From a virus, in IMG/VR virus record IMGVR_UViG_3300028549_000688: 64,000 nt of DNA. The stretch is one strand, 5' to 3'. The position numbers and the translations under genes were made by a program. This document shows, piece after piece, positions 15,108-39,170 of the stretch (its first letter is position 1; each line of letters begins with the position of its first letter). The notes below the pieces were generated by a model. It saw only the letters and a list, made by a program, of their open reading frames with translations. It had not been told where the DNA came from and did no database searches.

Positions 15108-16150
15108 AAGACAACCAGCCCGTACCAGGAGTACCGGGCCTGTACATGCGACCCGGCAAGCGGCGCGTCCTGTACTTCTGCAAGCCGCAGAACAAGTACA
15201 CACCCCTGGGTTATGACCTCGACGCAGCCAAGGCTGCGCTGGCCAAGCTCATGGAGATGCCGCTACTTCCCGGGCAGCACACGGTGGAGCACATGTGCCT
15301 GGCGTACATCGCTGAGCAAAAGCGCTACCTGGCCAACAACGACCTTGAGGCACTGGCACCTCGTACAATCAAGGACTATGAAGAGAGTTTGACCCGCTTC
15401 ATCATCCCGGTGTTCGGCCACATGCACCCGGACAGCGTGACCAAGAACCACATTGCCAAGTACCTAAAGGACGGACGCAGCACTCGGCGCACACGCGTGA
15501 ACCGTGAGCGCGCAGCACTCAGCAGTGCCTACAAGTTCGGCTTGGCTGAGGGTCTGGCCAAGGAGAACCCGTGCCACGGCGTGCCACGCAACACCGAGCG
15601 TCCACGCAGGCGCAACGTGACCATCGCTGAGTTCAACGACTTTCTGGAGCACGCCCGCGTCAAGGGCGGCTCGTCCTACATGGTGGCGCTCATCGGATGC
15701 ACCGTGGCCATCACCGGACGGCGGCGTGGCGAGATTCTGAACCTGACACGCGCAGCACTACAACCCGAGGGCTTCAGGGTCAAGGACATCAAGACCAAGG
15801 TGGGCGAGCCTGAGCGCCACTACCTTGTCGAGTGGAGCGACCTGCTGCACCAGCTCGTGAACGAAGTCATGGCCATCCCGCGCAGGGTGTCGAGCATCTA
15901 CCTGTTTGCCACAACCGACGAGGGCACACCCTACACCGACGCGGGGTTCAGTTGCCTGTGGGGGCGGCTCATGCGTAGCTACGCAGGTAGCAGGTCGAAC
16001 CCCAGGTGGTTCACAGCGCACGACCTGCGGGCTCTGTACGTCACGCAGATGCTCGAACAGAGTCGTGACCCCAAGACTCATAAAAATGAGCAGACAATGA
16101 AGAACGTGTATGAGCGCAGCCAGGTGATCAAGGTTTCGCCACTTGCGTGA
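15104..16150 (+). CDS. int: tyrosine integrase
   Basis: ATG 15104 follows a GGGAGG SD. Catalytic pattern ITGRRRGE (R), HDLRALY (HxxR), NVYERS (Y). Adjacent to a tRNA-derived att core. Confidence 0.9.
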   Translation: MKDNQPVPGVPGLYMRPGKRRVLYFCKPQNKYTPLGYDLDAAKAALAKLMEMPLLPGQHTVEHMCLAYIAEQKRYLANNDLEALAPRTIKDYEESLTRFIIPVFGHMHPDSVTKNHIAKYLKDGRSTRRTRVNRERAALSSAYKFGLAEGLAKENPCHGVPRNTERPRRRNVTIAEFNDFLEHARVKGGSSYMVALIGCTVAITGRRRGEILNLTRAALQPEGFRVKDIKTKVGEPERHYLVEWSDLLHQLVNEVMAIPRRVSSIYLFATTDEGTPYTDAGFSCLWGRLMRSYAGSRSNPRWFTAHDLRALYVTQMLEQSRDPKTHKNEQTMKNVYERSQVIKVSPLA

Positions 16151-16180
16151 GAGCATGTTAGACTATGTCAGACATATTCT

Positions 16181-16343
16181 GTAGCAAAAAGTGCGCTAAG
16201 TTGTTGATTTTATTGATGTGCGTGGCGCACTCTTAATCCGTAGGTCGAGAGTTCGAGCCTCTCAGTTCCCACCACCCATATAGGTTTGTTGCTATGAATT
16301 TTGACAAGAGATCGTAGCAAAAACTCTGAAACGTAGCAAAAAA
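16181..16343 (+). repeat. three direct copies of GTAGCAAAAA flanking the att core (candidate integrase arm-type sites)
   Basis: Copies at 16181-16190, 16314-16323 and 16333-16342. A near-inverse TTGCTAT lies at 16289-16295. Confidence 0.6.
16230..16274 (+). other. attP core: 3' half of a tRNA-Lys(CUU)-like gene, from anticodon loop to CCA
   Basis: CTCTTAA loop, TCCGT stem strand, T-arm GAGAG-TTCGAGC-CTCTC, AGTTCCC-A-CCA end. No matching 5' acceptor or D-arm upstream. Confidence 0.7.
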
Positions 16344-16369
16344 CCCGCCTTGAGCGGGTTTTCTTTTGT
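16333..16369. terminator. bidirectional rho-independent terminator
   Basis: Stem ACCCGC/GCGGGT (16343-16359) is flanked by an A-run upstream and TTTTCTTTT downstream. It sits between the convergent arms. Confidence 0.7.
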
Positions 16370-16401
16370 CATCGTTGCATGGCTCAAGACAAGAACCGCA
16401 G

Positions 16402-19400
16402 TTAACTGTCAGCGTGGCCGTCGGCCAGCGAGTTGCCCTTCATCGTGTTCCACACGTTCGCACCGGGCAGTGCGTTGACGGCCGTCTCGGCGGGCGCGTC
16501 GGTGAACATCTCGGTGATCTGCTCGATGGCCGGTCCGCCCAAGCTCAGCACTGTGTGGTGCGGGGCCATCGTGTCGGCCATCGGCTGGAACTTGCCCAGC
16601 AGCCCTGCGCGCATGGCGCCGTGCTCCAGCTCACTGTCGAGACCACCCTTCATCCACACAGGCTCGTCGCCGGTCAGCAGCACACTCTTGAGCGCGTCGC
16701 TGGCGATCATCACCGGGGTGTAGGTCAGCGCCAGCATGCCTGCAGGCCCCATGTCGCCGAACTTCTTGTAGTCGTGCAGCGCCCGCTTCAAGACCACGTC
16801 GTGGAACGTGTAAGCGAACTGCTTCATATGCCAGAACACCATGTAGTGCGGGTCGCTGGCCCAGGCCGGACGCTGTGCCGCGTTGGGCCGCAGCACTGAG
16901 CCGTTGACCCACTGGTGCAGCGCCTGCTGGATACGCGGGTCGGTGTAGTCGAGCTCACCGTCAGCGCCCACCTTCACGTCCTTGGCCGTCAGGTTCAACT
17001 CCTTGAGGTACGCAGCACTGCGCTCGTTGGGTGTCTGCACATGGCGCTTGATGAAGTTGATGGCCGCGCGCGTGGCTGCCACCTGCATGCCCCGGTTGAA
17101 GCCCTCCATGCCGTTGTACTTGAACATCACGTCGTTGATCTTGCGGAACTTGGCGCCCAGGTACTGGCTGCCATGGAGCTGGCCGAAGGCTGCCAGGAAG
17201 TGATTGGCGTCGGTCGTGCCCACCTGGTCAGCGATCTTGGCATCGAGGTCTTTGATAGGGTCGTCCTTGATGCTGGCCACCACCTCGCGCAGCCCGCGCT
17301 TGTATGCGTTCCATGCGTCACCCACAGTGGCTCCGCGCACCAGCAGGTTCAGCGGGTCGATGAACTGGCTGAACAGGCTCATGCTCAGCAGGCGCATGTT
17401 CTCGTAGACCAGCACGCTGTTCTGGAACTGGCGGTTCTTCGGGCTGATGTTGTAGCCCAACGTGCCTTCCATGGCCATCACGTCCTTGGCTGCACCTTGC
17501 GCCATCTTGAGCGCCTTGACCGTCAGCGCGTCGAACGCAGCCTTGTCGGCGTCGGGCTGACTGAAGGTTACCGTCTGCCACATGCGCTCAGGCATGCTGC
17601 CCTTACCGTCGATGGGCTTGGCCATCTTGGCTTTGTTGTACAGGTCGGTCACACCGAACTTGTTCTCGACCAGCTTGGCCAGCTGCATGTCGTGCGCCTT
17701 CTCTAGCTTGTCCTTGAGCACCTCACCACCGTTACCGAACTTGCGCACGTATTCGGCGCGCTTGACACCCTGGGCGATGTACCCCGTGAGGATGCGCGAG
17801 ACATCCTTGTCGCCGTACTTCTTGAGCATCTCCGGGTGAATCCAGTGCATCTGGCGTCGGTTGATCGCCTGCATGAACGGGCTGAATCCGATGGAGCTGC
17901 CGCTCTCTTCGATCTCGGTCTGGCCGAAGGCGTTGATCAGCCGGTTCGCAATGGCCTTGGCCACGTCCTCGGATGTCACCGGTGTGAAGTCCTTGCCCAC
18001 ACTTTTGGCCAGCGTCGCGTTCTGAGCTGCAGCGATGGCACCAAGCTCGTCGGGGTTGAACTTGACCAGGTCGGCCACGAAGCCGTCCACGTTGCCAAGG
18101 ATCATGGCCGTGTCGTAAGCACGCGGGAAGTAGCCGTGGTCAATCTTGCCCATGGGTACCCATTCGCCGCCCTCGCCGTCGGGTGAAGCCTCCCAGCGCT
18201 CGACGCCTGCCTGCTTGAGGTACTTGTGCATCTCAGGCAGCAGGCCGTTTGGCCCCTTGAGGCGCGCCACCAGCTGCTTGACAGCCGGGTCTTTGGGCGT
18301 CTCGCCTGTGTGCAGGTACGGCGCGGCCAGCTCCAGGTCTTTGGGGTGCAGCCCCTCGAACACAGTGGCCAGCCGGTTGCCCCACAGCTTCATCTGGTGA
18401 TCCTTGGCGTCCAGGAAGCCCTGCGCGCCGTCCTCGCCCACGCTGCGCTTGAACATGCGGCGCACCTCCTTGTACACAGGGTTGCCGGTGCGCTCCAGGT
18501 TCGTCTCAGCCGTGTTGACCAGACGCCCCGCCCGCTCCATCATGGGCTTGAAGGCGTTGTTGACACCCTCGTACATCTTCTGGCGGGCAGTCACACTGTT
18601 GGCCAGCACGCGCGCAGCTGCGTCGGCGGTCTGCATCTTGCCCTCGTCGAAGTTGCGCAGCAGCAGGTCGACACGTTCGTCGTCGTTGAGCAGGCCCGCC
18701 ACTTTGCGGAAGAAGGCTGCCAGCTTGGTGAAGATGTTCTGTGTCTCGGGTCCGATGTTCAACAGACCTGCTTCCCAGAACTGGAACATGTATGCCATGC
18801 GCTCTTCAGCTGCGTTCTTGGCACCTTGCTTGATCTGCTTGAGCGCCTCGGTCTCGCCGTCGAGCAAGCGCTCCAGCTGGCGCACCACGTACGGCGCGTT
18901 GGCAGCACGGTCGAGCAGCTTCATCACCTCGGCTGCAGCAGGCTCGCTCTTCATGCGGTCGAAGAACTCGTGGAACGCCTCATGCGCGCCCACTTGTCCC
19001 AGGTTGCGTGCGTACACCGAGGCGTAGATTGCACCCTTCTCCCACTTGCCACTGAGCATGATGTCTTTGCCCTTGGCGTTCTTGCCGTAGAGCATCTCCA
19101 GCGCAGCACTCTTCATGCCCGGGCCGAGGCGACGCATGATGTCGGCGTGGAACTTCTCCACCTCGGCCGGTGTGGCAGGGGTGGCGGTGCTGGTACCGAA
19201 GGCTTTGTTCGCAGGGTTTTGCTTGTTGAACTTCGTCGAGCCCTCGCGCGTCATACCAGTGTTCTTGACGCGAGCGCCTGATACACGCTCCCACGTGACG
19301 TCGCTGATCATCCCGCCCATCGCCTCATGGAATGCAGCCGTCATACCGAAGAAGCGAATCATCTGCTGCGGGGTTGTGCCAAGCACACGCAACAGCGACT

Positions 19401-22400
19401 CGCCGCTCGGTAGTTTGAGTCCTGTGTCTTCTATTGAGTTGGCGTGTAGTTTGTGAGCGGGTGACCCCGCCATAGGCCCGAGCGTGTCGAACGTCTTTTT
19501 AACCGGGTCGAACATCGCGTGTTGGATGGCGAAGTACGACATGGCGTTGAGCGCCCGGGTCTCATTCTGGAACTCCGGGCGAGACAGAAACCGTTGTAGC
19601 TGGGGGACTAACTCTTGAGCGACCGAAAAAGCATGCGTAAATCCGTTGCTTCCTCGGTAGACAAGCCAGTGACTGCCTTTAGCTGGTCCAAAGTCTGTCC
19701 CATCGACGAAAACCTCGAATGGGGTGTTTGCGGGATTGAATCCGCGAGCTTCGAGAACTCTTCGGAACTCATCTCCTTGCCTTCTAACCGAGGCCACGAA
19801 GCCCCGATGTGCTCCGATATGCTTTTTTGCGTCATCGTTTACTCCTTCAGGTGTTTGTGCGTTGTACCTCGGCCCACCGGTCTCATCATGATGCGCCTTT
19901 ACCTCAGCCTCGTTCTTGAGCGCCTTGAGCGCCTCGGCGCGCAGCAGCGTGGCCTTGAAGCGCAGGTCGTCGAGCCTATCGTACTCGTCACTGCCCTCTT
20001 CATGCTTGGCAGCCTCGGCCTTGAGCCGTGCCTCCTGCTTGGTCGCCCAGTCGCGTATGGCTTCGACCTGCTTGACGTTGTAGTCAGCCGGTGGGTTCTT
20101 GAGGTAGTTATTCATTTTCTCGGCTACGTCGGCGAACTTTTGTGACGGCGGTGCCGAAGCCGGTTTTGCGGCATCGGACTTCTTCGTCGCACCCTGCATC
20201 TTGCCCAGCTCGATGAGCGCGACGCGCGCACGCGCAGCATGCGGTGCGAACTTCGGGCTTTCGACCAGGCGCTGCAGGTGCCCGAGCAGCGCCTCGCGGC
20301 GCTCTGGCGAGAGCTTGCGCGCCATGGCTACGAACGACGGTACCCCCTTGGCAAGTGCGTCGATCACGAACGCGGTGCGTTGTGCGCGCTGTTCTTTGTC
20401 TGCAGATGGCGTCGCACGTGAGTCAAACGGGTGCAGCGCCTGGCCCAGCTCGTCGTAGTAGCGCTCGCCGTCGGACTCACCGTCTTCGTGACGTGAGCGT
20501 ATCGAGGTGGCCTTACCCATCTCACCGATCTCGGTTGGGAGGCCTGTGTGCTCGCGGCGGGTGTCTGCGACATCGCGTTCGACGACCCACGCCCCTGCGC
20601 GCTTAACAACTCTGTCGCTACCTTTGGCGCTAGCAAGTGCGAGCTTCTTAGAGCCGAACTTATTGCCCTGGTTGTCGCGCGCAATCACATCAGTGCGCGT
20701 TACAGGCTTCGTCTCGTAAGTGTCGGCACCGATCTCGGCATCGTCCTCGCGCCCGAGCTCGTACTTCTCAGACTTGCGCAGGATAGCGTCAACGGCCTTG
20801 GTGGCACCGGCTTCGAGGGCCGCACTCAGGTCTTCGATGTCTTCGATCACGTAGCTGCGCCCCTTGGCATCAGGCGCCATGTTTGCGAGCCGCGTCGAGA
20901 ACGACTTGAGCAGTGCCTTGCCAGCCGTCAGAATCTTCTGATTGGCAGCACCCTTGACGGCAGCCTTGGCGTCGCCATAAGTCTTGTCGCCGCTGTACAT
21001 GCGCAAGCTGGCAGGGAAGTCTTCACCGGCCTTGAGCCAGCGTACCTGATCGCCGGGTGCCTCCTTGTAGCCGACACGTCCGCTGAGCACCGGCGCACCG
21101 GTACCGCTCTTGCCGCTGGTGCTCTGGCCGTACTTGCCAGCCTCGGTCTCAGGATGTGCAGCTGCCAGCAGCGAGGCCAGCCCCTGCATGAGCGCAGTCT
21201 TCTGGCCAGCCAGGCCTGAGCTCTCGTCGACACGGCCCTCAGCCTTGCGGGCCTTGAACATGCGGTCGATGATGCGGCTGGCGCTGGTGGCGAACTCACG
21301 CGGCTTGCCGTCGGAGCCCATGCGCTCAAGCCAGATGCGCCCGTGCGCAGTGGTACCGAACTCACCGTCCTTGCCCACCTTCTCGGCCCACTTGTTACCA
21401 ATAATCTGGCCGTTGGCACCCTCGCGCCCGAACTCGTTGGCCGTCACGTTGGTGGCTTCGCCCTTCTCACGCTGTGCTTCTTCGCGCAGCACGTAGTAGT
21501 TGTCGTTGAGCACCTTGCCCAGGTCGTCGTGCTGTACATGCTTGGAGCCATCTTCCGTCGTGACCTCGCGGCCAGTCTTGTTCTGCAGCTGCAGCAGCTC
21601 GTCGTACTTGCTCTCGATGATCTTCTGCGCGTCGCCCATGAGCCCTTCGGCGTCGTTGCCGTGCTTCTCGCGCAGGTAGTCCATGTAGCCCTGCTGCGTC
21701 GCCTCGACGGCGCTGGTGCCGTGCAGCTCGGCCATGCGCTGCTTGGACACCGTGTCATGGAACGTGTCGGGCACAGCGAGGCCGTTCTTGTCGTTGTTCT
21801 TGACTCGCCCGCCAACGCGGAAGGGCTCAGGCAGCTTGATCTCGCCAGTGGTCTTGTCGACGCTACCTTCCTTGTAGTGGTGGTACTTCACCGTCGGTGC
21901 ACCCGCGTCGGGGTCGAGGTGGCTCGACGTGATCTGTTCCATGCCCTCAGCATCCATGCCGGGGATGACGTTCGGGGCCGGATTACCAGCCATGTCGCCG
22001 AACTCGTCGACCTGCGCGTTGGTGCGCTGTTCACCCGTGGTGAACTCGAACGAGCCGTCCTTGCGCCGAGCCTTTTCGTCCACATTGCGCAGCGCGTCGA
22101 GCACCAGGCGTGCGCGCGGCCCAAAGAGCTGGCGCGCCTCAGCGCTGTCGATCTTGTCAGCACGCATGTCGCCCTGCAGCTTCTCGGCCAGCGTCCGCAG
22201 TGACGGCGTGCTATACGCACGTCGCGCAGTCGGAAGGAGGTTGCTCTCAACAATGGCCCATGTGTCCTTCTGAGTGTCCTGCAAGACCTTGATCTGTTCC
22301 AGCACACGCGCACGAGTCTGCAGCGCATCGTCGTCGATAAGCCCCTGCTTGTGCATCATCTGCGTCGTGGCCACCACGGCAGCAGCCGGGTCGGTGAACA

Positions 22401-24081
22401 TGTTCAGCAGCGACTTGGGCACGACGGGCTCGCCGCCTTTCTTCATGCTAAAACCGTTGGCCACCCAGTTGCGCATGGCATGGCCCAGCGTGGGCATTGC
22501 ATTCTCCAGCGCCTCTGGTGTCTTGAGCCCGGTGAACGGTGCCAGGCTCTCTTCGAGGATTGGGCTGAAGTCGTCGCGCTCGTTGGCTATCTTGCGTCCC
22601 ATGGCCGGAGTCATGGCGTTCTGGCGGCCGTCAGCCTCGCGCTTGCCGTTGTAGGCAGTCAGCGCGTCGTCCTTGGCGTTCATCAGGTCAGCCGCGCCTT
22701 TGCCAAGCGCCTCGGCCACCGGAGCCAGCTTGTCGGACAACAGGTCGTTGGCTCCGCTGAGAATGTCCTCTGAGCGGTGCATGTCGTTGACTGCATCGGC
22801 CACAGGGCGCCAGCTGTCCATGGTCTTGCTGCCCTGCATGTACTGCTGCACGGCTGCATGCACGTAGTCCGGCACAGCCCCCGGATTTGCTTGAGTCTTT
22901 GCTATGAAGTTAGCAGCAGCCTGGTGCTTGGCTGCGTCGTCGGCGCGCAGGCCGGCCTCGTCCATGCCCTTCTGCGGCGTGAGCAGCACGTCGACATCTG
23001 CGTCGCGGCCCTTCTGCGCCCAGCGCGTGACCATGTCCTCGGCCTGGTTGTGCAGGTTTGCCGCACCTTCGCCCACCATGACGGCAGCCTCGTCCCACGA
23101 CTGCGGGCGTGCATCCCACGCCTGCTTGGCAGCGCCGCCGGCGGCTATGGCACCGCGCTTTCCCGCGCGCGCTGCGTAACTGGCCGCGTCGCCCACCGCT
23201 GCCGCCCCGCCGCCAAGCAGCTGGTGGCCCACGTCGCCAGCGTGGCCCATGGCACCGTAAGCTACGCCACCGGCAGCCTCGCCAGCCATGGCGTCGGCCA
23301 AGCGCCAGCCATCGTCGGTCGTGTCGCGCTGAGCATCGCGCCCAGTCTCGTAGCCCATGGCCACACCCTCAGACACACCGGCTGCGCCCGTGTCCAGCAG
23401 CACGTCGCGCCCTATGCGCTTGGCAGCGCTGGCCACCGGCTGACGCAGCACGTTGGCTGCCGTACCGCGCACCAGGCTGCCGCTGGCCAGGCCTGGCACC
23501 GTGCCCTCTATGAGCGACTGCGTCAAGCCCTGGTTGCTGGTATTGGTGAGCACGCGCTGCGGGTCCAGCGCAGGCGCACCCTGCTGCTCGGCCTGCAGCT
23601 GCTGCAGTCGGGCAGCGTCGCGCAGCTGCGGGTACATGCCGCCCGAGGCACCCAGGTGGCTACCTATGGCTGCGCCCGCAGGGCCTGCCACCAGGCCGCC
23701 CAGCACGCCGCCAGCCAGACCGCCGCCCATGGCGGGCACGGCCGAGACTGGCAGCGAGCCCACCGTGCCTGCGAACCAGTCGGCACCGTCGCCCCATCCG
23801 TGTATGTCACGCAGGCTGCGCACCCTCGGTGCCACCTGCTCGGCCTCTTGCGCCAGCTGCTGAGCGCGCAGTTGGCTGGCCTGAGCACGCGGCATGTCGC
23901 CTGCGGCTCGGGCCTGCCAGTATTCATCAGCAGCGGTGCCAGCACTGTGCCCGACGAGCGCCGACCGCAGCCCGCGTGTGACTTGTCCGTCTTCGACGAA
24001 GCGGCTGTAGTCGGGGTCTGCCGGAGATGGCAGTGAATAAACCGCTTGGGGGGTTGTCGCTTGGTACAGAGCTGTTGCCAC
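16402..24081 (-). CDS. giant multidomain virion/ejection (polyvalent-type) protein, 2559 aa, with HExxH metallopeptidase-like motif
   Basis: GTG start with a GGAG SD. Gly-zipper/Ala-rich N-terminus. GAHEAFHEF at 18970-18984. Last gene of the late arm. Confidence 0.65.
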   Translation of the reverse strand: MATALYQATTPQAVYSLPSPADPDYSRFVEDGQVTRGLRSALVGHSAGTAADEYWQARAAGDMPRAQASQLRAQQLAQEAEQVAPRVRSLRDIHGWGDGADWFAGTVGSLPVSAVPAMGGGLAGGVLGGLVAGPAGAAIGSHLGASGGMYPQLRDAARLQQLQAEQQGAPALDPQRVLTNTSNQGLTQSLIEGTVPGLASGSLVRGTAANVLRQPVASAAKRIGRDVLLDTGAAGVSEGVAMGYETGRDAQRDTTDDGWRLADAMAGEAAGGVAYGAMGHAGDVGHQLLGGGAAAVGDAASYAARAGKRGAIAAGGAAKQAWDARPQSWDEAAVMVGEGAANLHNQAEDMVTRWAQKGRDADVDVLLTPQKGMDEAGLRADDAAKHQAAANFIAKTQANPGAVPDYVHAAVQQYMQGSKTMDSWRPVADAVNDMHRSEDILSGANDLLSDKLAPVAEALGKGAADLMNAKDDALTAYNGKREADGRQNAMTPAMGRKIANERDDFSPILEESLAPFTGLKTPEALENAMPTLGHAMRNWVANGFSMKKGGEPVVPKSLLNMFTDPAAAVVATTQMMHKQGLIDDDALQTRARVLEQIKVLQDTQKDTWAIVESNLLPTARRAYSTPSLRTLAEKLQGDMRADKIDSAEARQLFGPRARLVLDALRNVDEKARRKDGSFEFTTGEQRTNAQVDEFGDMAGNPAPNVIPGMDAEGMEQITSSHLDPDAGAPTVKYHHYKEGSVDKTTGEIKLPEPFRVGGRVKNNDKNGLAVPDTFHDTVSKQRMAELHGTSAVEATQQGYMDYLREKHGNDAEGLMGDAQKIIESKYDELLQLQNKTGREVTTEDGSKHVQHDDLGKVLNDNYYVLREEAQREKGEATNVTANEFGREGANGQIIGNKWAEKVGKDGEFGTTAHGRIWLERMGSDGKPREFATSASRIIDRMFKARKAEGRVDESSGLAGQKTALMQGLASLLAAAHPETEAGKYGQSTSGKSGTGAPVLSGRVGYKEAPGDQVRWLKAGEDFPASLRMYSGDKTYGDAKAAVKGAANQKILTAGKALLKSFSTRLANMAPDAKGRSYVIEDIEDLSAALEAGATKAVDAILRKSEKYELGREDDAEIGADTYETKPVTRTDVIARDNQGNKFGSKKLALASAKGSDRVVKRAGAWVVERDVADTRREHTGLPTEIGEMGKATSIRSRHEDGESDGERYYDELGQALHPFDSRATPSADKEQRAQRTAFVIDALAKGVPSFVAMARKLSPERREALLGHLQRLVESPKFAPHAARARVALIELGKMQGATKKSDAAKPASAPPSQKFADVAEKMNNYLKNPPADYNVKQVEAIRDWATKQEARLKAEAAKHEEGSDEYDRLDDLRFKATLLRAEALKALKNEAEVKAHHDETGGPRYNAQTPEGVNDDAKKHIGAHRGFVASVRRQGDEFRRVLEARGFNPANTPFEVFVDGTDFGPAKGSHWLVYRGSNGFTHAFSVAQELVPQLQRFLSRPEFQNETRALNAMSYFAIQHAMFDPVKKTFDTLGPMAGSPAHKLHANSIEDTGLKLPSGESLLRVLGTTPQQMIRFFGMTAAFHEAMGGMISDVTWERVSGARVKNTGMTREGSTKFNKQNPANKAFGTSTATPATPAEVEKFHADIMRRLGPGMKSAALEMLYGKNAKGKDIMLSGKWEKGAIYASVYARNLGQVGAHEAFHEFFDRMKSEPAAAEVMKLLDRAANAPYVVRQLERLLDGETEALKQIKQGAKNAAEERMAYMFQFWEAGLLNIGPETQNIFTKLAAFFRKVAGLLNDDERVDLLLRNFDEGKMQTADAAARVLANSVTARQKMYEGVNNAFKPMMERAGRLVNTAETNLERTGNPVYKEVRRMFKRSVGEDGAQGFLDAKDHQMKLWGNRLATVFEGLHPKDLELAAPYLHTGETPKDPAVKQLVARLKGPNGLLPEMHKYLKQAGVERWEASPDGEGGEWVPMGKIDHGYFPRAYDTAMILGNVDGFVADLVKFNPDELGAIAAAQNATLAKSVGKDFTPVTSEDVAKAIANRLINAFGQTEIEESGSSIGFSPFMQAINRRQMHWIHPEMLKKYGDKDVSRILTGYIAQGVKRAEYVRKFGNGGEVLKDKLEKAHDMQLAKLVENKFGVTDLYNKAKMAKPIDGKGSMPERMWQTVTFSQPDADKAAFDALTVKALKMAQGAAKDVMAMEGTLGYNISPKNRQFQNSVLVYENMRLLSMSLFSQFIDPLNLLVRGATVGDAWNAYKRGLREVVASIKDDPIKDLDAKIADQVGTTDANHFLAAFGQLHGSQYLGAKFRKINDVMFKYNGMEGFNRGMQVAATRAAINFIKRHVQTPNERSAAYLKELNLTAKDVKVGADGELDYTDPRIQQALHQWVNGSVLRPNAAQRPAWASDPHYMVFWHMKQFAYTFHDVVLKRALHDYKKFGDMGPAGMLALTYTPVMIASDALKSVLLTGDEPVWMKGGLDSELEHGAMRAGLLGKFQPMADTMAPHHTVLSLGGPAIEQITEMFTDAPAETAVNALPGANVWNTMKGNSLADGHADS

Positions 24082-24093: not shown

Positions 24094-26661
24094 TTATTGC
24101 TTGGACACAGGCAGTCGCCCTAGTGTTTCCAGCATGGCCCTACCGTTGGGGTCGTTGATGATGTCCATGAGCGGCACGGAAATCGGTCCGCCGACACCGC
24201 GTATCTGAACTCGCTGGTCGTTGATCCACGGCAGCTTTGTTTTCAGATAGCCGTCCAAGTGCATATTGGCCGCCAGATCGGCAAGCTCTGCCGCGCGAGG
24301 CCCATCGACAACGGCCACGCGACCTGGCGCTACACCTTTGCCAAGAGCCGATTGCTTCGAGTATTTGTTGGCGAATTCACTGAGCGTGTGCTCGTTGGAA
24401 GCATGCTGTGCAAACGCTTTGGCCTCTCGCGGGTGGTGCGCGAACGCATAGTCCAGCGACATCTCTCTGTCACCAATTTTCACCGTCGGTAGCGTCTGTG
24501 CGATGTACGCACGCTTGCGCGCCAGCGCCCGCTCGTCGAGGGTGGGCGGCTTCTCACCCTTGGGGTCGTCGATGTACATCGACGGGTCGTTCTTGAGATA
24601 TTCGTCGAACGACTTAGACCCTTCGCGCTGCATCTCGCCGGTGTACTTGGCCCGATCTAGCCCAAGGCGCGCCAGGAGCCCCTGCGACGTGAGCTGGTTG
24701 TGCTCGCGGTTTATCTCGTTTTGCTCACGTGCGGTCGCGTCGGACGCAGCGGCGGTCTGCTGCTGCATCTTGGCCTTCTGCATCTCAACCATCGCTGCGC
24801 GCCTGTGCTTGCTCATGGGCTGGTTCAGAGCCTCGGCGTCTTCACGCAGGGTGCGTTCAGCCGTCATCTTGTCAGCAAGGGCTGACATGCGCCCCGCCAC
24901 CTCGACACCCTCAGCGTATTGCCGGGTGCGCTTGTAGTCGGTTGTCGGTTTACCCTCCTCGTCCACGTAGGACATCTTTTCCGGCCCAGTTGAGTTGGAC
25001 AACACGAGTCCTCCGTTTGCGTCGCGCGAAGCTCTGATGCCCGCGCCACGCAATGCCCAGGCTTCGTTGGCCGTGTCCATCGCTGCACCTTTGAGGCCCC
25101 TGATGTTCATGTCGGCGTTTGTGTTGGCGATGCCGCCGCCACCCTGTGGTACCCGCCATTCGCTCGGATCGGCCACACCCGCCTTCAGCGCAGCCGCGCG
25201 CAGTGTGTAGTCCTCATCGGCGGAGCCTCTGCGACCAAAGACCGTGTTGAGCATTGCATCGCTCTTCAGCCTGTCGTCGTCGGTGACCGCGACAGGGAGG
25301 CTTGGTGTTTGTGCTGCTTTCTCCTGTGCAGCATGCTCCGCCAGCTTGCGGTCATTTTCCGCTTTGAAGGGGTTGGTGTCGGCCTTGTTCGCAGGGGCTG
25401 CCGTGCTCACGTCGCGCACACCTTGCGCAGCACCCTGCACTGCGCCAGCCACCAGCGGACGCTCGGCGAGCTTGAGCGTCTTGCTAATTGCACCTGCCCC
25501 AAGGCCCAGCGCGCCACGTGCGACGGGGCCCGCGCCTGGGATCATCGAGACTGCGTTCAGCGTGTTGCCGACGTTGCGCCCCGTCTCGTTGTCAGTGAAG
25601 TAGTTGTACGGCTGTGCGGCAGGCGTTGCACCAGCCACCCCTCCTGTGGGAATTTTACGGACCTGTTCTGTCTCTGTCGGGTTGGGCCGCACAGGGTTGT
25701 TGGACGGGTCTCCGATATTCGTGGCAGCCTGAGCTGCGGCGTACCCCGCAGCGCCACCCATCGCACCTGCAGCCAGCCCGCCGAGGACAGGTTTGACAAC
25801 CGACGGTCGTACTGGCGCGGGCGCGGCGGGTGTTGCTGCTATACCCGGCGTTGGTCGGCCACGCGCCGCGTCCCACTGATTGCTACCCCACTGCTTGGCC
25901 TGTTGCCAGGTCGACTTTGGTGCTGGAGCTGCTTCTTGAATTGGCGGTGGCGCAGCGCCGGACGTGTTACCCATGGGCGGCGGTTTGCGGGCCTGCGCCT
26001 TGGCTGTGGCTGCGTCCTTCATGGCTTGCGCTTCGGGGCTTATGCCCGGCGCAGGGCCTGCACCCGTCCCTCGCGCGCCCAGGTCGTTGGCCATGCCGTT
26101 GAACGCAGTGCTACCTGGCGGCGGCTTCGGCGCACGCTTCTGCCCGAGCAGGTCAGCGGCCACGTCCGCCATCGGGGGCACACGCGCATCTGCAAAATGC
26201 CCACCGGCTCGCAGCCCTCCGCGTGCAGGCGCTATACCGTCGTTGGTCTGCTCGATGAGCCTTGCAAGGTTCTCTACACCTACCTTGGCAACCGTCTTGG
26301 CAGGTAACACAGCCTCGCCGCGTGACAGGTTGGCAGGTACTGAGTCGCTGGTGGCGGTGCCTGGGCCATGAACGTACGGCGTACCTCGTGACAGCTGTAG
26401 ACCACTCGGCATGGCTATCGGGTTGTAGCTGCCAAGCATGGCACCTGTTGTGGCGCGCAGATTGCGCGGCGCGGTTGTGGCGGGCGGTGCAGCAGGGCTT
26501 GTCAGTGCACCTGTAGGTGTGTTCTGCAGATTGTTGAACGCGGCCTGATCCTGTCCACTCATGGGTGCGGTGTTCATGGGTGGCTCGGGCACCAGGCCTG
26601 TTGCAAAGCGGTTCGCGGCACGGGCCTTATGGAGTCCGCGTAGTATCTGTGTTTCTCTCAT
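24094..26661 (-). CDS. internal virion/ejection protein, 855 aa, Ala/Pro/Gly-rich
   Basis: GGAG SD. The GPGTATSDSVPANLSRGEAVLP motif resembles one recurring in phage tape-measure/ejection proteins (from memory). Long low-complexity core. Confidence 0.55.
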   Translation of the reverse strand: MRETQILRGLHKARAANRFATGLVPEPPMNTAPMSGQDQAAFNNLQNTPTGALTSPAAPPATTAPRNLRATTGAMLGSYNPIAMPSGLQLSRGTPYVHGPGTATSDSVPANLSRGEAVLPAKTVAKVGVENLARLIEQTNDGIAPARGGLRAGGHFADARVPPMADVAADLLGQKRAPKPPPGSTAFNGMANDLGARGTGAGPAPGISPEAQAMKDAATAKAQARKPPPMGNTSGAAPPPIQEAAPAPKSTWQQAKQWGSNQWDAARGRPTPGIAATPAAPAPVRPSVVKPVLGGLAAGAMGGAAGYAAAQAATNIGDPSNNPVRPNPTETEQVRKIPTGGVAGATPAAQPYNYFTDNETGRNVGNTLNAVSMIPGAGPVARGALGLGAGAISKTLKLAERPLVAGAVQGAAQGVRDVSTAAPANKADTNPFKAENDRKLAEHAAQEKAAQTPSLPVAVTDDDRLKSDAMLNTVFGRRGSADEDYTLRAAALKAGVADPSEWRVPQGGGGIANTNADMNIRGLKGAAMDTANEAWALRGAGIRASRDANGGLVLSNSTGPEKMSYVDEEGKPTTDYKRTRQYAEGVEVAGRMSALADKMTAERTLREDAEALNQPMSKHRRAAMVEMQKAKMQQQTAAASDATAREQNEINREHNQLTSQGLLARLGLDRAKYTGEMQREGSKSFDEYLKNDPSMYIDDPKGEKPPTLDERALARKRAYIAQTLPTVKIGDREMSLDYAFAHHPREAKAFAQHASNEHTLSEFANKYSKQSALGKGVAPGRVAVVDGPRAAELADLAANMHLDGYLKTKLPWINDQRVQIRGVGGPISVPLMDIINDPNGRAMLETLGRLPVSKQ

Positions 26662-26693
26662 ATCAGACTCCGTTAGAGTTAAGGGTATTGTAA

Positions 26694-26710
26694 AGCGCCA
26701 CTATGGCGCT
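26694..26710 (-). terminator. weak hairpin (AGCGCCA-CTA-TGGCGCT) downstream of the moron cassette
   Basis: 7-bp perfect stem read directly. Only a poor U-tract on the minus strand. Confidence 0.3.
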
Positions 26711-26722
26711 GGGGGTTGTTGA

Positions 26723-26977
26723 CTACTTGTAGAGCTTTACGCAGCGCTCTTCTTCTTCGAGTCGCCACACTTTGTGCGCGTTAACAGCGGCTACGCACTC
26801 AGCACGTTTGTCAGGGCTCTGACCGTAAGCCGCGCCTGCGCAACCCAATCGCTGCAAGTCGGCTGTGCCTGAAACTCGCTGCACGACGCCTGCATCTTCC
26901 ATGCACTTTTCGAGCTTTTGTTGGTTACCGCTGCACCCTGACACAGCAAGTAGCGTTGCAAGCAATAGTTTGTTCAT
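26723..26977 (-). CDS. small Cys-rich lipoprotein (84 aa)
   Basis: Signal peptide MNKLLLATLLAVSG|C with a lipobox. Five further Cys in the mature part. Sits in a low-GC island. Confidence 0.7.
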   Translation of the reverse strand: MNKLLLATLLAVSGCSGNQQKLEKCMEDAGVVQRVSGTADLQRLGCAGAAYGQSPDKRAECVAAVNAHKVWRLEEEERCVKLYK

Positions 26978-26983
26978 ACGAAC

Positions 26984-27160
26984 CTACTCGTCTTCGTCGT
27001 CAAAATCATCGCCAAAATCGGCGGAGTACTCAGCCTCAAGCTGCTCCCAGCGAGGATCACCGCGATAAATTACAGTCCCGTCGGTGAGAACGCAAGCATC
27101 TAGCCCTTCGGCCAGAACCATGTTCAATGACGCGGCCATTGCGCCGTCTTTTTCTGTCAT
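26984..27160 (-). CDS. 58-aa protein with extremely acidic C-terminal tail (DFGDDFDDEDE)
   Basis: My own translation; below the track cut-off. AGGAG SD 8 nt upstream of the ATG. Confidence 0.5.
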   Translation of the reverse strand: MTEKDGAMAASLNMVLAEGLDACVLTDGTVIYRGDPRWEQLEAEYSADFGDDFDDEDE

Positions 27161-27179
27161 GTCATTCGCTCCTGTCTGA

Positions 27180-27632
27180 TTAACAGCCGGCTCGTTGCGG
27201 CATATTCCAAATATCTATATCGCACCCGCAGGTCAGACACTTCGGGCAAATTATTCCGCCGCAATCCCCGCACTGAAAATAGTGAGCCTGCAACTGCACG
27301 CCGCACCTTGCACATTTCGGCGTTCGCCTGCCGTTAAATAAGCCGACAAGTACCTTTTTGTTTTCTTTGCCAACCACTGCTGCAAACCGCGTCGGAGTTG
27401 TTCGCAGCAACTCACCCTCATGCTCCACACTCACATCTTCGATCGCCGTTTGCAAAGCGCGTTTAACTGTGATGTAGTCTCCGACTATCTCGAACGCCTT
27501 TTTCTTATCGCCATCTTTGTGAAACAGAACACCGCGCACCAGCTCACCCTCGCGTCTTGTGACTGCCTCAAAATCGCATAATCTTTTGGATGAATGCGTA
27601 AAGTTCTTAGGCACGTCGTCAAAGTTGTCCAT
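27180..27632 (-). CDS. 150-aa protein with C-terminal 8-Cys double zinc-ribbon
   Basis: GGAGGG SD. CARCG-x10-CGDCGGIICPKCLTCGC. Low-GC codon usage. Confidence 0.6.
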   Translation of the reverse strand: MDNFDDVPKNFTHSSKRLCDFEAVTRREGELVRGVLFHKDGDKKKAFEIVGDYITVKRALQTAIEDVSVEHEGELLRTTPTRFAAVVGKENKKVLVGLFNGRRTPKCARCGVQLQAHYFQCGDCGGIICPKCLTCGCDIDIWNMPQRAGC

Positions 27633-27653
27633 CTCACCACCATCCCTCCAAAG

Positions 27654-27685
27654 TTATTGTGCCGAACATTCTACGCGCGCAATAA
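27654..27685. promoter_or_regulatory. imperfect palindrome TTATTGTGC-N14-GCGCAATAA in a divergent intergenic region
   Basis: Read directly. Lies between the divergently oriented 27632(-) and 27719(+) starts. Confidence 0.35.
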
Positions 27686-27718
27686 TGAGCACCCCGCACT
27701 GCGAACCGAGGCGAATCT

Positions 27719-28015
27719 ATGACACCCACCGAACACGAAACGTATGCGCTAAAGATGCGAGCGCTCGCTCTACAAACACTTGTAGACTGGAACGCTGATC
27801 TCTGGCACGAGCTGGGCATGCAGTCTGAATCTGCTGCTCGATCTGAGTTCTTGTCGGCAATGAGGAAAAAGCTACTGATTGCACGAGCTGACTACCAAGA
27901 GATAACTCTTCAGGGCGTGCACCCCGTTGAGTCTGACTTGCGTGCGGCTTTGTTTCAGGAAGCATTTGATTTGGCCTCAGAGAAGATGATGAAAATAATC
28001 GAGCACGGTCTCTGA
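27719..28015 (+). CDS. 98-aa all-helical hypothetical protein; the only plus-strand gene inside the late arm
   Basis: GAGG SD. Its stop abuts the stop of the convergent 895-aa gene with 0 nt between. Confidence 0.6.
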   Translation: MTPTEHETYALKMRALALQTLVDWNADLWHELGMQSESAARSEFLSAMRKKLLIARADYQEITLQGVHPVESDLRAALFQEAFDLASEKMMKIIEHGL

Positions 28016-30703
28016 TTACTCCCCCGCATACTCAACAGCCAAACCGTTGATACCAGCCACTGCTGCACCGGCCAGGTTCCCTGCGATGGTCGCTTGAGAT
28101 GTCGACAGCTGCGACAACAGCGTGGAGTAGCTCTTCTTGAGCTCAGCCTCAGCAATGAGCCGCTGCTGATCGATCTTGCCCTGCTCGATCTGTAGCCCCG
28201 TGGCGGCCTGGTAGTAAGCGATGTGTGCGCGGGCCTGGGCTTCCTCGGCGCTCATCTGCGCACCGAACTTGTCGAACACCTGCTTGTTCGCGGCGATGTT
28301 CGCTTGCACCACTGCCGACTCCGCGTCCACCCCGGCTTTGTACGCCCCCACCGAGGCCAAGTACTGCTGGGAGTTGGCCGAATTGCTGGTAGCTACAGCC
28401 TGAATCTCGGCCACCTTGGATTCGACAATTGCCTTGAACCCCTGCACCTCAGCGTTGAACGCCTGCACGCTACTGGCATACACCTGTGCTTTGGCCGTCT
28501 CACCGCTGATCTCGGCCATGTAGCCACGGTACTCTGCGTCCTTGGCTTGTACCTCGGCGTTGTATGCCTGCACTTGGGCCTGGAACAGTTCTACCTTGAG
28601 TTTCTCCAGCGAGGTCTTCGCTACCAGCGCTTCGATCCGCGCGCGGTACGCTGCCACCTGGGCCGACATACCTCCGATCTTGGCCTTGTACCCTTCCACG
28701 ATGTTCTGCCCCGCCTGGGCATTCACCCCCATGGCAGCAACCTCGGCTTTCATCACCTCGACCGGTGCCACCGCAGCCCTGATAGCCAGCTCGTACTGCT
28801 TCACTTCTTCTGCGTAGCTCTCAACGGCAACCTTGTCGCTCTGTACCGCTGCCTGATAGCCAGCGACCTCTGCCTGGAACCCCTCTATAGCTGCGCGGGC
28901 CACCTTCTGCTCGACCTCGAACACCTGCTGCTCGATGGCGAACACATCGCCCTTCACCTTCTCGCCCTGCACCTGTGCCTGCACGCCGCTGATCTGCGCC
29001 TTGTACGCCTCGATGGGCATCAGGTCCGACTCGACCTGTGTCTTGTACACCTGCGCCTGCACACCATACATCTGGGCCAGGGCCTGATCCCCCTGCACTT
29101 GTGCCTGCAGCGCCTGCACCTCAGTCTTGTACAGCTCCACTGGTGCCATGGCCGCACGGACCTGTGCTTCATATGCCTGCACACCTGACGTGAATATATC
29201 CACCTTCAGCTTGTCACCCTGTATCAGCGCCACCATGGCGTCGATTTCGGCCTTGAAGATGTCCACCCGCACCACACTTGCGCGCAGCAGTGACTCGTAC
29301 ACCTGTGCCTCGGTCTTGTAGGCATCCAGCTTGGCGGCGTAGTTCTTGACCTCCAGGTTGTAGGTCTCGACGAGGGCAGAGAGGATGGACTTGGAGTAAT
29401 CCAGCGCTTGCCCGTTGATAACCCCGAGGTTTTGCATGTAGCTCATGGCTGTGTTCAACAGCGTCGTGCGCAGCCCAATCGCCGCAGTCAGAATGAACTG
29501 GCGGTTCTTCTGCTCCATTTCGGCCTTCATCACCACGATCTCCGACGCTGCTCGCGCGTTGTTGTCAGCCCCAGCTTGCCGCGCCTGCTGCATGGCAGAC
29601 ATCATGGCACCGGTAGGTATGGTGAAGCCACGTGTCGCCGCGTCGTTAATCACCTGGTCGCGCACACGTCGCGCCTCAGCATCGTTCTTGCTCCGTGCCC
29701 GCGAATAAATTGCGTCCTCGACCTCGGGCTGAATGCCAGTGCCCTCTGGCCCGGGGTTCAGGTACTCGTCGAGCTTGAGCACAATCGCTGCAAACTGTTC
29801 CCGCCCACCTGGACAGGTAGTGTCGAGGAACGCGTCCAACTGCGCCTTAATGTTCGCGCTCATGGACGCAGAGGCTTGGCCATATTCCGTGGCTGCTGTC
29901 AGCGACAGACCTCTCGGTGCGTTGGTGAGGTCAACGGGTTTTAGTGCAGTGAACTCCGGCAGAATGATCTCTGGCGGCTCGGGCTCAGCCCGGTTGTCCA
30001 CCGTCGGTACCTCGCCGTAGAACGACGGGATGGACAGCGCCGGTGCCGTAGGCAGGGTGTGTGCTGTTATGTTCGGGGCGGGGTCATTGAATGCGCGGGC
30101 CGATACACTCGGCGCTGCGCCAACTGTCGGGGTGGTGATTGACGGCGCGTTGCCGGAGAACGTGACAGGCGTGTATCCCTTGAACACCGGAGCAGCACCC
30201 GCGTTCAGTGCTGCTACCTGGCCCGCGAAACCCGGGTCAGTTACGTGTACGGCGGTATATGTGCCCACCGGCGGCAGCGGGTCGGGCACCCCAGGCTCCA
30301 GCGAGGGTGGCGGCGGCTCAGCAAAACTGGTCTGCACGACAGGTGCGCGTTCTGTAAAGCTCTGTAGTTCATCAGGTACTGTGCCCCATGTCAATGTCGG
30401 TGCGGTACCGTAAGAGGGGGTTGGTGCAGCGCCCGCTGCCACATCAGGGACAGGCTGTAAGGCCTCAGGTGCCTCAGGAGCACCCGGGAAGGAGGGGTTC
30501 ACCGGTGACACTGACGGTAGCGGCGATAAAGCGCCGGGTACGTAGGGTGCTGGCCCGCCGCCCACGTTGGCCGTGCCGATCAGGGTGCCCCACCCCGCCC
30601 AGTCTACTGAGTCGATGGCGTTCTCAATAGATGCCTGCGCGCTATCGTGCATGGCCTGCGCATAGGTCCTCGCCTGAGATATTAGGTCAGCTGCTTGGGT
30701 CAT
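28016..30703 (-). CDS. 895-aa virion/ejection protein with Pro-rich N-terminus and a long heptad-phased repeat region
   Basis: About 13 tandem 21-residue units (aa ~481-770), alternating A and B types. Directly abuts the neighbouring genes. Confidence 0.65.
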   Translation of the reverse strand: MTQAADLISQARTYAQAMHDSAQASIENAIDSVDWAGWGTLIGTANVGGGPAPYVPGALSPLPSVSPVNPSFPGAPEAPEALQPVPDVAAGAAPTPSYGTAPTLTWGTVPDELQSFTERAPVVQTSFAEPPPPSLEPGVPDPLPPVGTYTAVHVTDPGFAGQVAALNAGAAPVFKGYTPVTFSGNAPSITTPTVGAAPSVSARAFNDPAPNITAHTLPTAPALSIPSFYGEVPTVDNRAEPEPPEIILPEFTALKPVDLTNAPRGLSLTAATEYGQASASMSANIKAQLDAFLDTTCPGGREQFAAIVLKLDEYLNPGPEGTGIQPEVEDAIYSRARSKNDAEARRVRDQVINDAATRGFTIPTGAMMSAMQQARQAGADNNARAASEIVVMKAEMEQKNRQFILTAAIGLRTTLLNTAMSYMQNLGVINGQALDYSKSILSALVETYNLEVKNYAAKLDAYKTEAQVYESLLRASVVRVDIFKAEIDAMVALIQGDKLKVDIFTSGVQAYEAQVRAAMAPVELYKTEVQALQAQVQGDQALAQMYGVQAQVYKTQVESDLMPIEAYKAQISGVQAQVQGEKVKGDVFAIEQQVFEVEQKVARAAIEGFQAEVAGYQAAVQSDKVAVESYAEEVKQYELAIRAAVAPVEVMKAEVAAMGVNAQAGQNIVEGYKAKIGGMSAQVAAYRARIEALVAKTSLEKLKVELFQAQVQAYNAEVQAKDAEYRGYMAEISGETAKAQVYASSVQAFNAEVQGFKAIVESKVAEIQAVATSNSANSQQYLASVGAYKAGVDAESAVVQANIAANKQVFDKFGAQMSAEEAQARAHIAYYQAATGLQIEQGKIDQQRLIAEAELKKSYSTLLSQLSTSQATIAGNLAGAAVAGINGLAVEYAGE

Positions 30704-38162: not shown

Positions 38163-38600
38163 CTATCTTAGAGCGTCGATGATAGTCACTGCGGTTTTGA
38201 GGTCGGAAACGTGTCTATCACAGCTGCCCGCCAACGCAGAATACTCTGTGCTGCAACTAGAGAGTAGCTCGCTGGTGGTAGTGGTTGTGTCAGCACAAAC
38301 GCTGGGGTCGGCGCGAGCGGCGAACACGGCACGGTGGAGGGCGCTGCGCAGGCTGTCAACAGCAGACTCAGCGGCGGCAGCGTCCAGGCGAAGCTGGCGT
38401 TCGCGCAGGCGAGCATCATTCTGTGCAGTGAGCACTTGAAGGCTTCTTGCCTGCTCCAGGCGAGATACTTCTTGTTCTGCAGCTCGCGCTGTGGTGAGAC
38501 GATCGTTTTCATTGGCTTGCATCCGTAGGGTTTGAATTTGCCATGCTGCCCCGAAGGACAGGCCGGCGCTGAGAAAGGCGGTGATCAGGTAGAGGTTCAT
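38163..38600 (-). CDS. i-spanin (Rz-like)
   Basis: N-terminal TM (LITAFLSAGLSFGAAW) followed by an Arg/Glu/Gln/Ala-rich (charged/polar) coiled coil. Lies downstream of the endolysin. Confidence 0.65.
   Translation of the reverse strand: MNLYLITAFLSAGLSFGAAWQIQTLRMQANENDRLTTARAAEQEVSRLEQARSLQVLTAQNDARLRERQLRLDAAAAESAVDSLRSALHRAVFAARADPSVCADTTTTTSELLSSCSTEYSALAGSCDRHVSDLKTAVTIIDALR
38186..38419 (-). CDS. o-spanin (Rz1-like), embedded out of frame in the i-spanin gene
   Basis: MMLACANASFAWTLPPLSLLLTA|C lipobox, followed by a Pro-rich 54-aa mature peptide. Fully nested inside Rz. Confidence 0.55.
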   Translation of the reverse strand: MMLACANASFAWTLPPLSLLLTACAAPSTVPCSPLAPTPAFVLTQPLPPASYSLVAAQSILRWRAAVIDTFPTSKPQ

Positions 38601-38696: not shown

Positions 38697-39170
38697 CTAT
38701 GGTGTGAGGTACGTGAGGCATAGGTCTTTTTCCATGTTGCGACGAGTTGTCAAGCCAGGGAGACTGACTGCAACACCACCGACAATGGCATTCGACCATC
38801 TCGGCAATTGTTCGCAGGCCTCCCGAAACTTGCCTGCTGCAAGAAATCTCGCGGCGGTGGACCGGGAAGAGTCGCAGGCGACTTTGTCACCAAGGTTATA
38901 TGCCGCGTCGCTAAAGGCGGCAAGAACCGGGATCGGTAGGCCTGGCCGGCAGGTGTCCACGGCTGATATGACATCGTTCATCTCCTTGGTGAGTAGCGCT
39001 TTGCATTCGGGCAACGTCCTGAAGTCGCCCATCTTTACGCCCTTGGTGCTGCCCATGCAGATGGTGGGCAGGCCGGTCACATCCCGGTAAGCCCACAGGC
39101 GCGTGCCCTCCATCGGGATCGCAATTGCCGTGGACAGAGCGAGGACGATGGCGCGCTGTTTGGGTGTCAT
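38697..39170 (-). CDS. endolysin, T4-lysozyme (GH24) type, with hydrophobic N-terminus (possible SAR)
   Basis: E-x8-D-x5-T triad in PMEGTRLWAYRDVTGLPT, with T4L spacing. N-terminal AIVLALSTAIAIP. Confidence 0.85.
   Translation of the reverse strand: MTPKQRAIVLALSTAIAIPMEGTRLWAYRDVTGLPTICMGSTKGVKMGDFRTLPECKALLTKEMNDVISAVDTCRPGLPIPVLAAFSDAAYNLGDKVACDSSRSTAARFLAAGKFREACEQLPRWSNAIVGGVAVSLPGLTTRRNMEKDLCLTYLTP

Follow-up and report, generated by a model that had tools for sequence, protein, structure and literature searches.

Exclusion, defense, and counter-defense genes tend to be discovered in the cargo hotspots of temperate phages, and in phage P22 the immI/sieA region lies after the ejection-protein gene 16 within the late operon. 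For lambdoid phages, the term moron has been defined and exemplified by HK97 gp15, whose gene 15 is located between the tail chaperone and tape-measure genes (PMC3594210). The block imposed by P22 SieA is overcome by mutations in the ejection proteins gp16 and gp20; sieA, orf59a, and mnt have been placed together on one plasmid, and gene 9 lies downstream of gene 16 (PMC10883804). T5 Llp is a periplasmic disulfide-bonded lipoprotein encoded beside the receptor-binding protein gene (PMC9586334). Here, we analyzed a block of four small genes at positions 26662-28015 of a 64,000-nucleotide viral DNA stretch (IMG/VR record IMGVR_UViG_3300028549_000688), hereafter referred to as the window. The block separates the genes of an 895-amino-acid (aa) virion protein and an 855-aa putative internal virion/ejection protein, and it encodes an 84-aa lipoprotein, a 58-aa acidic protein, a 150-aa protein with an eight-Cys motif (Zn-Cys protein), and, on the opposite strand, a 98-aa protein. 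We favor, with moderate confidence, a reading that combines a moron-type cargo hotspot in an internal virion/ejection-protein operon with a lipoprotein acting as an entry-exclusion factor.

A cargo slot between two virion-protein genes

The 895-aa, 855-aa, and giant 2,559-aa proteins have contiguously encoded homologues in phage F116 and in MW202615, a metagenomic phage; i.e., the slot there is empty. The 895-aa protein has distant homologues in F116-like phages, whereas residues 85 to 148 of the 855-aa protein carry a GPGT-SD motif matching tape-measure-type PHROGs, and 855-aa homologues come after the slot in two further lineages, L012 and L026. The L012 lineage was found by a metagenome-contig scan with the giant protein (67% identity); its contigs (L012 to L016 and L022 to L025) represent one population, and its 855-aa and 895-aa proteins are 36 to 40% identical to those of the window. 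The slot of L012 is 474 bp long, low in G+C, and occupied by a single gene encoding an 85-aa lipoprotein homologous to that of the window; L012 lacks the Zn-Cys, 58-aa, and 98-aa genes. L026 is an IMG/VR prophage-like contig (IMGVR_UViG_2894787282_000001; giant protein 65% identical) that sits in a 117-kb contig beside recombinase-like genes. Its slot (6265-7866, 1.66 kb) encodes an HNH endonuclease (Pfam, 7e-16), an unknown protein of ~204 aa, and a ~150-aa protein with four transmembrane segments, without a lipoprotein. The four-transmembrane protein could be an inner-membrane exclusion factor. Given an empty slot in F116 and MW202615 and different cargo in L012 and L026, the site is very probably a variable cargo slot, with two layers.

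The two layers were distinguished by comparison with Logan contig L002, in which the island is 92 to 97% identical to that of the window and the abutting 3′ end of the 895-aa gene is 62% identical, with the identity break falling at the convergent stop codons. Since such high identity stands beside so diverged a flank, the Zn-Cys, 58-aa, and 98-aa genes appear to be a newer module that moves horizontally (layer 2), and the lipoprotein gene appears to be the older resident of the slot (layer 1). ENA contig ERZ1426815 could be compared by its gene table only. In this table, the Zn-Cys gene lies 74 bp beyond a long same-strand gene, which apparently leaves no room for a divergent gene, and no 58-aa or lipoprotein gene is called after the Zn-Cys gene. 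The first-pass annotation had read the block as an inserted moron island unrelated to virion assembly. The insertion is borne out by flanks that adjoin each other in F116 and MW202615, by different cargo in L012 and L026, and by the 92 to 97% identical module next to a 62% identical flank; instead of routinely syntenic virion genes, the relatives show an empty or differently filled slot. In contrast, the block did not hold together as one island: the lipoprotein is resident in a diverged lineage to which the other three genes are an add-on, and the left similarity boundary of the island falls within the lipoprotein gene. Joint occurrence of the four genes elsewhere was likewise seen in part, with the layer 2 genes together in L002 but the lipoprotein alone in the L012 slot.

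The base composition of the island is also distinct. Its GC content is 0.517, compared with 0.582 for the window, a mean of 0.60 for the late arm, and about 0.61 to 0.63 for the flanks. The island is the lowest-GC stretch of the 40-kb late arm, and segments of equal size reach values as low in 0.1% of the late arm and 4% of the whole window. GC at third codon positions ranges between 0.53 and 0.57 in the four island genes and between 0.59 and 0.84 in 20 other genes tested. The annotated frame scored top of six in codon log-odds for each of the four open reading frames (ORFs); scores were near zero despite this best frame, and codon use is therefore atypical for the phage. The low G+C, the deviating codon usage, and the four ORFs described previously were all recovered. 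The window maximum of GC (0.70 to 0.73) is at 23000-24000, which encodes the Gly/Ala-rich N-terminal part of the giant protein.

By the moron criteria of Juhala and Hendrix, extra DNA thus lies between genes that are adjacent in relatives, and its composition differs. On these structural grounds (insertion, composition, and mosaic spread), the block is a fairly ordinary phage accessory cassette, as judged from sequence. No target-site duplication or flanking direct repeats were found at the island. No match to the island or its four proteins came up in DNA and tblastn searches of GenBank phages and PLSDB plasmids, and viral contigs scanned with the 895-aa, 855-aa, and lipoprotein sequences were equally negative.

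The window is a nearly complete phage genome. A 66,328-bp JGI contig encodes the same proteins, and the independent Logan contig L001 shows 11 differences in 9,750 bases. The late arm is on the minus strand: it begins with the large terminase gene (54139-55992), continues with genes for the portal, major head protein, head closure, and lysis, and ends with the giant protein gene. The plus-strand early genes encode a helicase, a ligase, ThyX, and an integrase-like protein; a search for tRNA genes in the window found none. The integrase-like gene runs toward the end of the giant virion gene, and the 250-bp gap that separates them (16151-16401) is likely the attachment site (attP) region. Because of this integrase-like gene and of the recombinase-like genes beside L026, a temperate lifestyle is likely on sequence features. 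The nearest GenBank phages are F116-like Pseudomonas podophages, with protein identities of just 24 to 26%, and the phage is probably a temperate podophage distantly related to F116.

Table 1. Coordinates, in the window, of the slot, its flanks, and other features mentioned in the text (SD, Shine-Dalgarno sequence)
Feature	Coordinates	Strand	Basis or content
855-aa putative internal virion/ejection protein, downstream flank of slot	24094-26661	-	ORF
Conserved joint	26621-26761	-	Last 13 codons of lipoprotein gene, hairpin, CTTTACAATACCC, leader/SD ACTCTAACGGAGTCTGA, first ~15 codons of 855-aa gene
Hairpin AGCGCCA-UAG-UGGCGCU, then UUUAC	26694-26710	-	In minimum free energy and centroid folds
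84-aa lipoprotein precursor	26723-26977	-	ORF; signal MNKLLLATLLAVSG followed by C; lipobox VSGC
58-aa acidic protein	26984-27160	-	ORF and AGGAG SD; ends DFGDDFDDEDE
150-aa Zn-Cys protein, core of newer module	27180-27632	-	N-terminal beta-meander and helix, C-terminal eight-Cys motif
Divergent spacer, 86 bp	27633-27718		Imperfect palindrome and two -10-like elements
98-aa helical orphan protein	27719-28015	+	ORF and GAGG SD; best frame of six
895-aa virion protein, upstream flank of slot	28016-30703	-	phrog_10969 at 1.4e-68
Integrase-like gene	14972-16150	+	Phage_int_M, 28.6 bits (cutoff 27)
Giant 2,559-aa protein	16402-24081	-	Last gene of late arm
Rz-like gene with embedded ORF	38163-38600		Lysis-cassette annotation
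Endolysin	38697-39170		Lysis-cassette annotation

The lipoprotein and the conserved end of the slot

The lipoprotein precursor has the signal peptide, the lipobox, and the Cys-rich character ascribed to it in the first-pass annotation. Its mature part comprises 70 residues with a single Pro and, besides the lipobox Cys, four further Cys residues that probably form two disulfides. The 85-aa homologue of the L012 lineage is 41% identical, carries an LAGC lipobox, and shares the motif KLEKCM and an identical C-terminal sequence, RLEEEERCVKLYK. Its four nonlipid Cys are similarly spaced, and three of them align. The ends of the two proteins are conserved and their center is variable. A diversity-generating retroelement-like template copy of this variable center was looked for and discarded, there being no second copy in the window. 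A word-indexed homologue search with the lipoprotein retrieved no relative, and comparison with PHROG, Pfam, NCBIfam, and PDB sequences, homology to Cor/Llp included, gave no match.

The sequence combines the features that characterize Cor and Llp, namely, a type II signal with a lipobox followed by a small mature domain with a predicted disulfide. We propose that the layer 1 product would be secreted and tethered to the periplasmic side of the outer membrane, where it would block entry of the same or similar phages by receptor masking, in the manner of T5 Llp and Cor. Alternatively, the block would be exerted through interference with incoming ejection proteins, as by P22 SieA. By analogy to these proteins and to HK97 gp15, entry exclusion is a serious possibility for the lipoprotein, if one that falls somewhat short of probable. 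The variable center, along with the fast divergence of the 855-aa and 895-aa proteins, fits the idea of an entry block without proving it. An export-signalled lipoprotein cannot enter a capsid that assembles in the cytoplasm and, because it is exported, this protein would not be a virion component. A small lipoprotein within a late operon could also be an o-spanin or another lysis factor, a proposal that we rejected as barely credible. The endolysin and Rz-like genes of the lysis cassette are 11 kb away, at 38.2 to 39.2 kb. An o-spanin is encoded in or beside the i-spanin gene and has a proline-rich mature part, whereas the preceding gene here encodes no transmembrane segment and the mature part, with one Pro and four Cys, is unlike that of proline-rich Rz1.

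The downstream end of the slot is conserved at the nucleotide level. The joint of 141 nt is 87% identical to that of L012, although the proteins are just 40% identical. Within it, ~80 nt comprising CTTTACAATACCC, the leader with its SD, and ~15 codons of the 855-aa gene are nearly invariant among the window (26600-26690, minus strand), L012 (7300-7385), and L026 (7885-7965), three lineages whose 855-aa proteins are 35 to 40% identical. Because synonymous sites of the joint are conserved as well, these alignments suggest a nucleotide-level function of the ~80-nt joint, e.g., as a promoter (with a -10-like TACAAT), an RNA element, or a recombination anchor. The conserved slot end could be a leaky terminator or a terminator-promoter junction. 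An Rfam scan of 26300-28300 returned no match.

The hairpin noted previously after the cassette is a real structure, a weak terminator-like element with a 7-bp GC-rich stem, but its tail is a short UUU and its fold z-score is -1.0. Hairpins of other sequence occur at the same place in L012 (GCCC-GACA-GGGC) and L026 (AGCGUC-UUCG-GGCGCU), and in all three lineages the ~80-nt stretch comes next. L012 also exhibits a promoter-like CTGTCA-18-TAGAAT (9/12 matches) 17 nt before the lipoprotein start. A further observation in this region concerns the motif CTCTAACGGAGTCTGA, which with up to 3 mismatches occurs seven times in the window (at 4746, 7717, 8085, 10115, and 59665, and on the minus strand at 26663 and 50959), compared with 0.38 copies expected; none of 100 shuffles reached seven. 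The motif is always placed in the direction of transcription, with four copies that are intergenic and immediately upstream of gene starts, and a phage-specific role in regulation or translation initiation is possible.

The newer module and its divergent spacer

The Zn-Cys protein is characterized by the motif CxxC-x10-CxxC-x4-CxxC-xx-CxC, the eight Cys of which (C107, C110, C121, C124, C129, C132, C135, and C137) do not vary among six sequences whose identity goes down to 28%. Close homologues are encoded by L002 (91%) and ERZ1426815 (72%). Three more, distant members (E values of 6e-5 to 3e-4) emerged when 1.8 billion representatives were searched exhaustively with a profile hidden Markov model; these are found on short contigs or in a bacterial context and have no partner gene in common. 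The most distant homologue (P0013; contigs L008 to L010, e.g., L009, 2286-4649) lies in an AT-rich bacterial region with genes for HSP70, DUF6615, a secreted SNase, a membrane protein, CsrA, and a LexA-like protein, none of which is shared with the window. The ratio of nonsynonymous to synonymous substitution rates with respect to L002 is 0.26 and, according to this comparison, the Zn-Cys gene is under purifying selection. The same comparison revealed a mosaic gene, with a proportion of synonymous differences of 0.057 in the first 240 nt and 0.34 in the 213 nt at the end, the part coding for the Cys-rich domain.

The protein had been described as ending in a double zinc ribbon. The eight Cys stand, but a ribbon fold was not confirmed, and searching the family profile against PDB yielded weak matches to the cross-brace FYVE domains of melanophilin, Hrs, and EEA1 (E values of 0.003 to 0.14). 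The ZZ_ADA2 score of 10.6 bits is below the curated Pfam threshold of 27.5. Structure prediction did not help: AlphaFold models built with 3 and 6 sequences had predicted local distance difference test (pLDDT) scores of 46 and 51, and Foldseek matches in PDB to CdiI and AcrF1 were discarded, since no E value was below 0.38.

The 58-aa protein contains 17 Asp and Glu and 3 Lys and Arg residues, giving a net charge of about -14 and corroborating the extreme acidic tail pointed out before. The first 38 codons of its gene are kept in L002, with two nonsynonymous and five synonymous changes, and this start of the gene is, on that alignment, under purifying selection. Homologue searches, including those of GenBank phages and PLSDB, found no homologue of the 58-aa protein outside L002. 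Two adjacent small genes in a mobile module, one of them encoding a very acidic product, might constitute a prophage-borne toxin-antitoxin or abortive-infection pair, and the HSP70, DUF6615, SNase, CsrA, and LexA-like genes near a distant Zn-Cys homologue would be in keeping with such a role. We nonetheless deem this pair highly improbable, given that PADLOC had no matches at E values of ≤1 for the four proteins plus the three distant homologues, that the ERZ1426815 gene table lists nothing like the 58-aa gene beside the Zn-Cys gene, and that distant Zn-Cys homologues lack a conserved partner.

A word-indexed search with the 98-aa protein identified a sole relative, the 66-aa L002 allele, which differs by an in-frame 96-bp (32-codon) deletion between AGTCTGA microhomologies and by few, mostly nonsynonymous, substitutions. 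The ORF is probably, though not certainly, a gene. Two earlier remarks on it proved accurate: its stop codon abuts that of the 895-aa gene with a 0-nt gap (28015/28016), and it is the lone plus-strand gene of the late arm, where all other plus-strand ORFs are overlapped by longer minus-strand ORFs. Transcription of the 98-aa gene would oppose late transcription.

The divergent spacer is 93% identical in L002, with one palindrome arm changed. The palindrome reported in the first-pass annotation (27654-27662/27677-27685) exists, but it is complementary at 8 of 9 positions only (7 of 9 in L002); repeats of 8/9 quality occur at 4.2 per kb, with 13% of 86-bp stretches containing one. On the minus strand, the -10-like TAGAAT (27673-27668) is centered in the palindrome, which also overlaps the -10-like AATAAT of the plus strand (27681-27686). 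The -35 regions of both elements, read by eye, are poor. We envisage that layer 2 was inserted upstream of the lipoprotein gene and that weak divergent promoters in the spacer would transcribe it, with the imperfect palindrome bracketing TAGAAT as a candidate operator. Late transcription would also read through this layer, as through all three minus-strand genes of the slot. Its role would probably be cytoplasmic regulation or counter-defense and, by analogy with described loci, the options are counter-defense, an immI-like switch, or the toxin-antitoxin/abortive-infection pair considered above.

As for counter-defense, layer 2 could be an anti-defense locus in which the acidic 58-aa protein mimics DNA or inhibits in the manner of Acr or Ocr, with the 98-aa protein as an Aca-like repressor at the palindrome. 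The net charge of the 58-aa protein, small orphan genes under purifying selection, recent horizontal movement of the module, and a palindrome that brackets a -10-like element are all compatible with this assignment, and anti-CRISPR operons of Mu-like Pseudomonas phages indeed lie within structural operons under an Aca repressor. However, the 98-aa protein has no helix-turn-helix or ribbon-helix-helix match, and its gene is divergent to the operon, whereas aca genes lie downstream within it. The 98-aa gene also suffers the 32-codon deletion in L002 and apparently has no room in ERZ1426815, and the Foldseek match to AcrF1, with an E value of 0.5 on a low-confidence model, is meaningless. An anti-defense locus is thus unlikely.

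The same spacer also recalls a secondary immunity region like P22 immI, with the 98-aa protein as a Mnt-like maintenance repressor that would hold off the Zn-Cys protein as antirepressor. Both regions occupy the same position, after ejection-protein genes inside a late operon, and here a small divergent gene is accompanied by a palindrome overlapping both -10-like elements. Yet none of the four proteins matched the Arc/Mnt ribbon-helix-helix or Ant families in Pfam, PHROG, or NCBIfam, the gene table of ERZ1426815 keeps the Zn-Cys gene without room for a divergent gene, and the palindrome is not intact in L002, which makes an immI-like region very unlikely.

A bolder formulation would see two undescribed families at this site. 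One would be an ejection-linked lipoprotein whose variable center sets the specificity of a superinfection block directed from the periplasm against the fast-evolving ejection proteins of an incoming phage or against a receptor, and the other would be a mobile counter-defense or immunity switch formed by the Zn-Cys and 58-aa proteins under a palindromic operator, with the ~80-nt joint as a recombination or regulatory anchor for cargo swaps. We hold this formulation to be rather doubtful.

Assessment and comparison with described systems

Several observations weigh against a moron-type hotspot with an entry-excluding lipoprotein. The palindrome is at chance level and degrades in L002. A consensus sigma-70 scan of the 86-bp spacer detected no promoter above threshold, and the hairpin is followed by 3 U, folds no better than shuffles, and was not called by a terminator scan. 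The four proteins matched no exclusion, defense, or regulator family in Pfam, PHROGs, NCBIfam, or PADLOC, which agrees with the first-pass annotation, where no family had been recognized. Structure prediction failed (pLDDT of 46 to 51 and no Foldseek match below an E value of 0.38). Few independent lineages were compared, since L012 to L016 and L022 to L025 are one population and ERZ1426815 is represented by its gene table. Genome-contig scans found no relative of the Zn-Cys or giant protein and hence no host. Finally, the three minus-strand genes follow one another closely, are oriented like the late operon, and have their own SDs; late-only expression is therefore possible.

This last arrangement is also what would be expected if these genes were ordinary late-operon accessories (chaperones, assembly factors, or ejection aids) transcribed late only, rather than functional morons. 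Such accessories would similarly account for the lack of a promoter or terminator at scan threshold and for a lipoprotein that is kept at the slot in a lineage with flanking proteins 36 to 40% identical. They are hard to reconcile with a slot that lacks any gene in F116 and MW202615 and in L026 carries unrelated genes, a homing endonuclease among them; with the absence of the Zn-Cys, 58-aa, and 98-aa genes from L012; with an export-signalled lipoprotein, which is incompatible with a cytoplasm-assembled capsid; and with the foreign composition. We therefore consider late-operon accessories quite unlikely and retain the cargo hotspot with an entry-excluding lipoprotein as the preferred reading.

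The interest of the locus lies in its orphan families and in their placement directly among DNA-ejection protein genes. Three slot families are without annotation across about 15 billion public proteins, and the few relatives known display cargo turnover. Should the lipoprotein block entry, the Llp/Cor/SieA theme would extend to F116-related podophages, and exclusion specificity would be tied to rapidly diverging ejection proteins. Otherwise, the block is one more well-delimited moron with orphan genes.

Among described systems, the lambdoid morons exemplified by HK97 gene 15 resemble the block in consisting of extra DNA of deviant G+C between late genes that are adjacent in relatives, with small genes dispensable for the virion, a hairpin at the downstream end, and a location beside DNA-delivery proteins. 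Unlike them, the block has several genes, one of them divergent, in two layers of different age, and its candidate promoter and terminator are only weak consensus matches. With P22 sieA/immI it shares accessory genes within a late operon adjoining ejection-protein genes, one small gene oriented against the late direction, palindromic intergenic DNA, and a site whose content varies among relatives. However, neither sequence nor domains resemble SieA, Mnt, Arc, or Ant, and SieA resides in the inner membrane, whereas the product here is a lipoprotein. The 150-aa protein resembles cross-brace zinc fingers (FYVE, ZZ, and RING) in the spacing of its four Cys pairs but differs from them in its last pair, CxC, in scores far below Pfam thresholds, and in the lack of a confident structure; its family is bacterial and phage-borne, with the Cys motif joined to an unrelated N-terminal domain. 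T5 Llp and Cor differ from the lipoprotein in having two Cys rather than four and show no detectable homology to it, but they are likewise phage lipoproteins of about 60 to 70 mature residues, with intramolecular Cys pairs (predicted here), encoded near host-entry genes.

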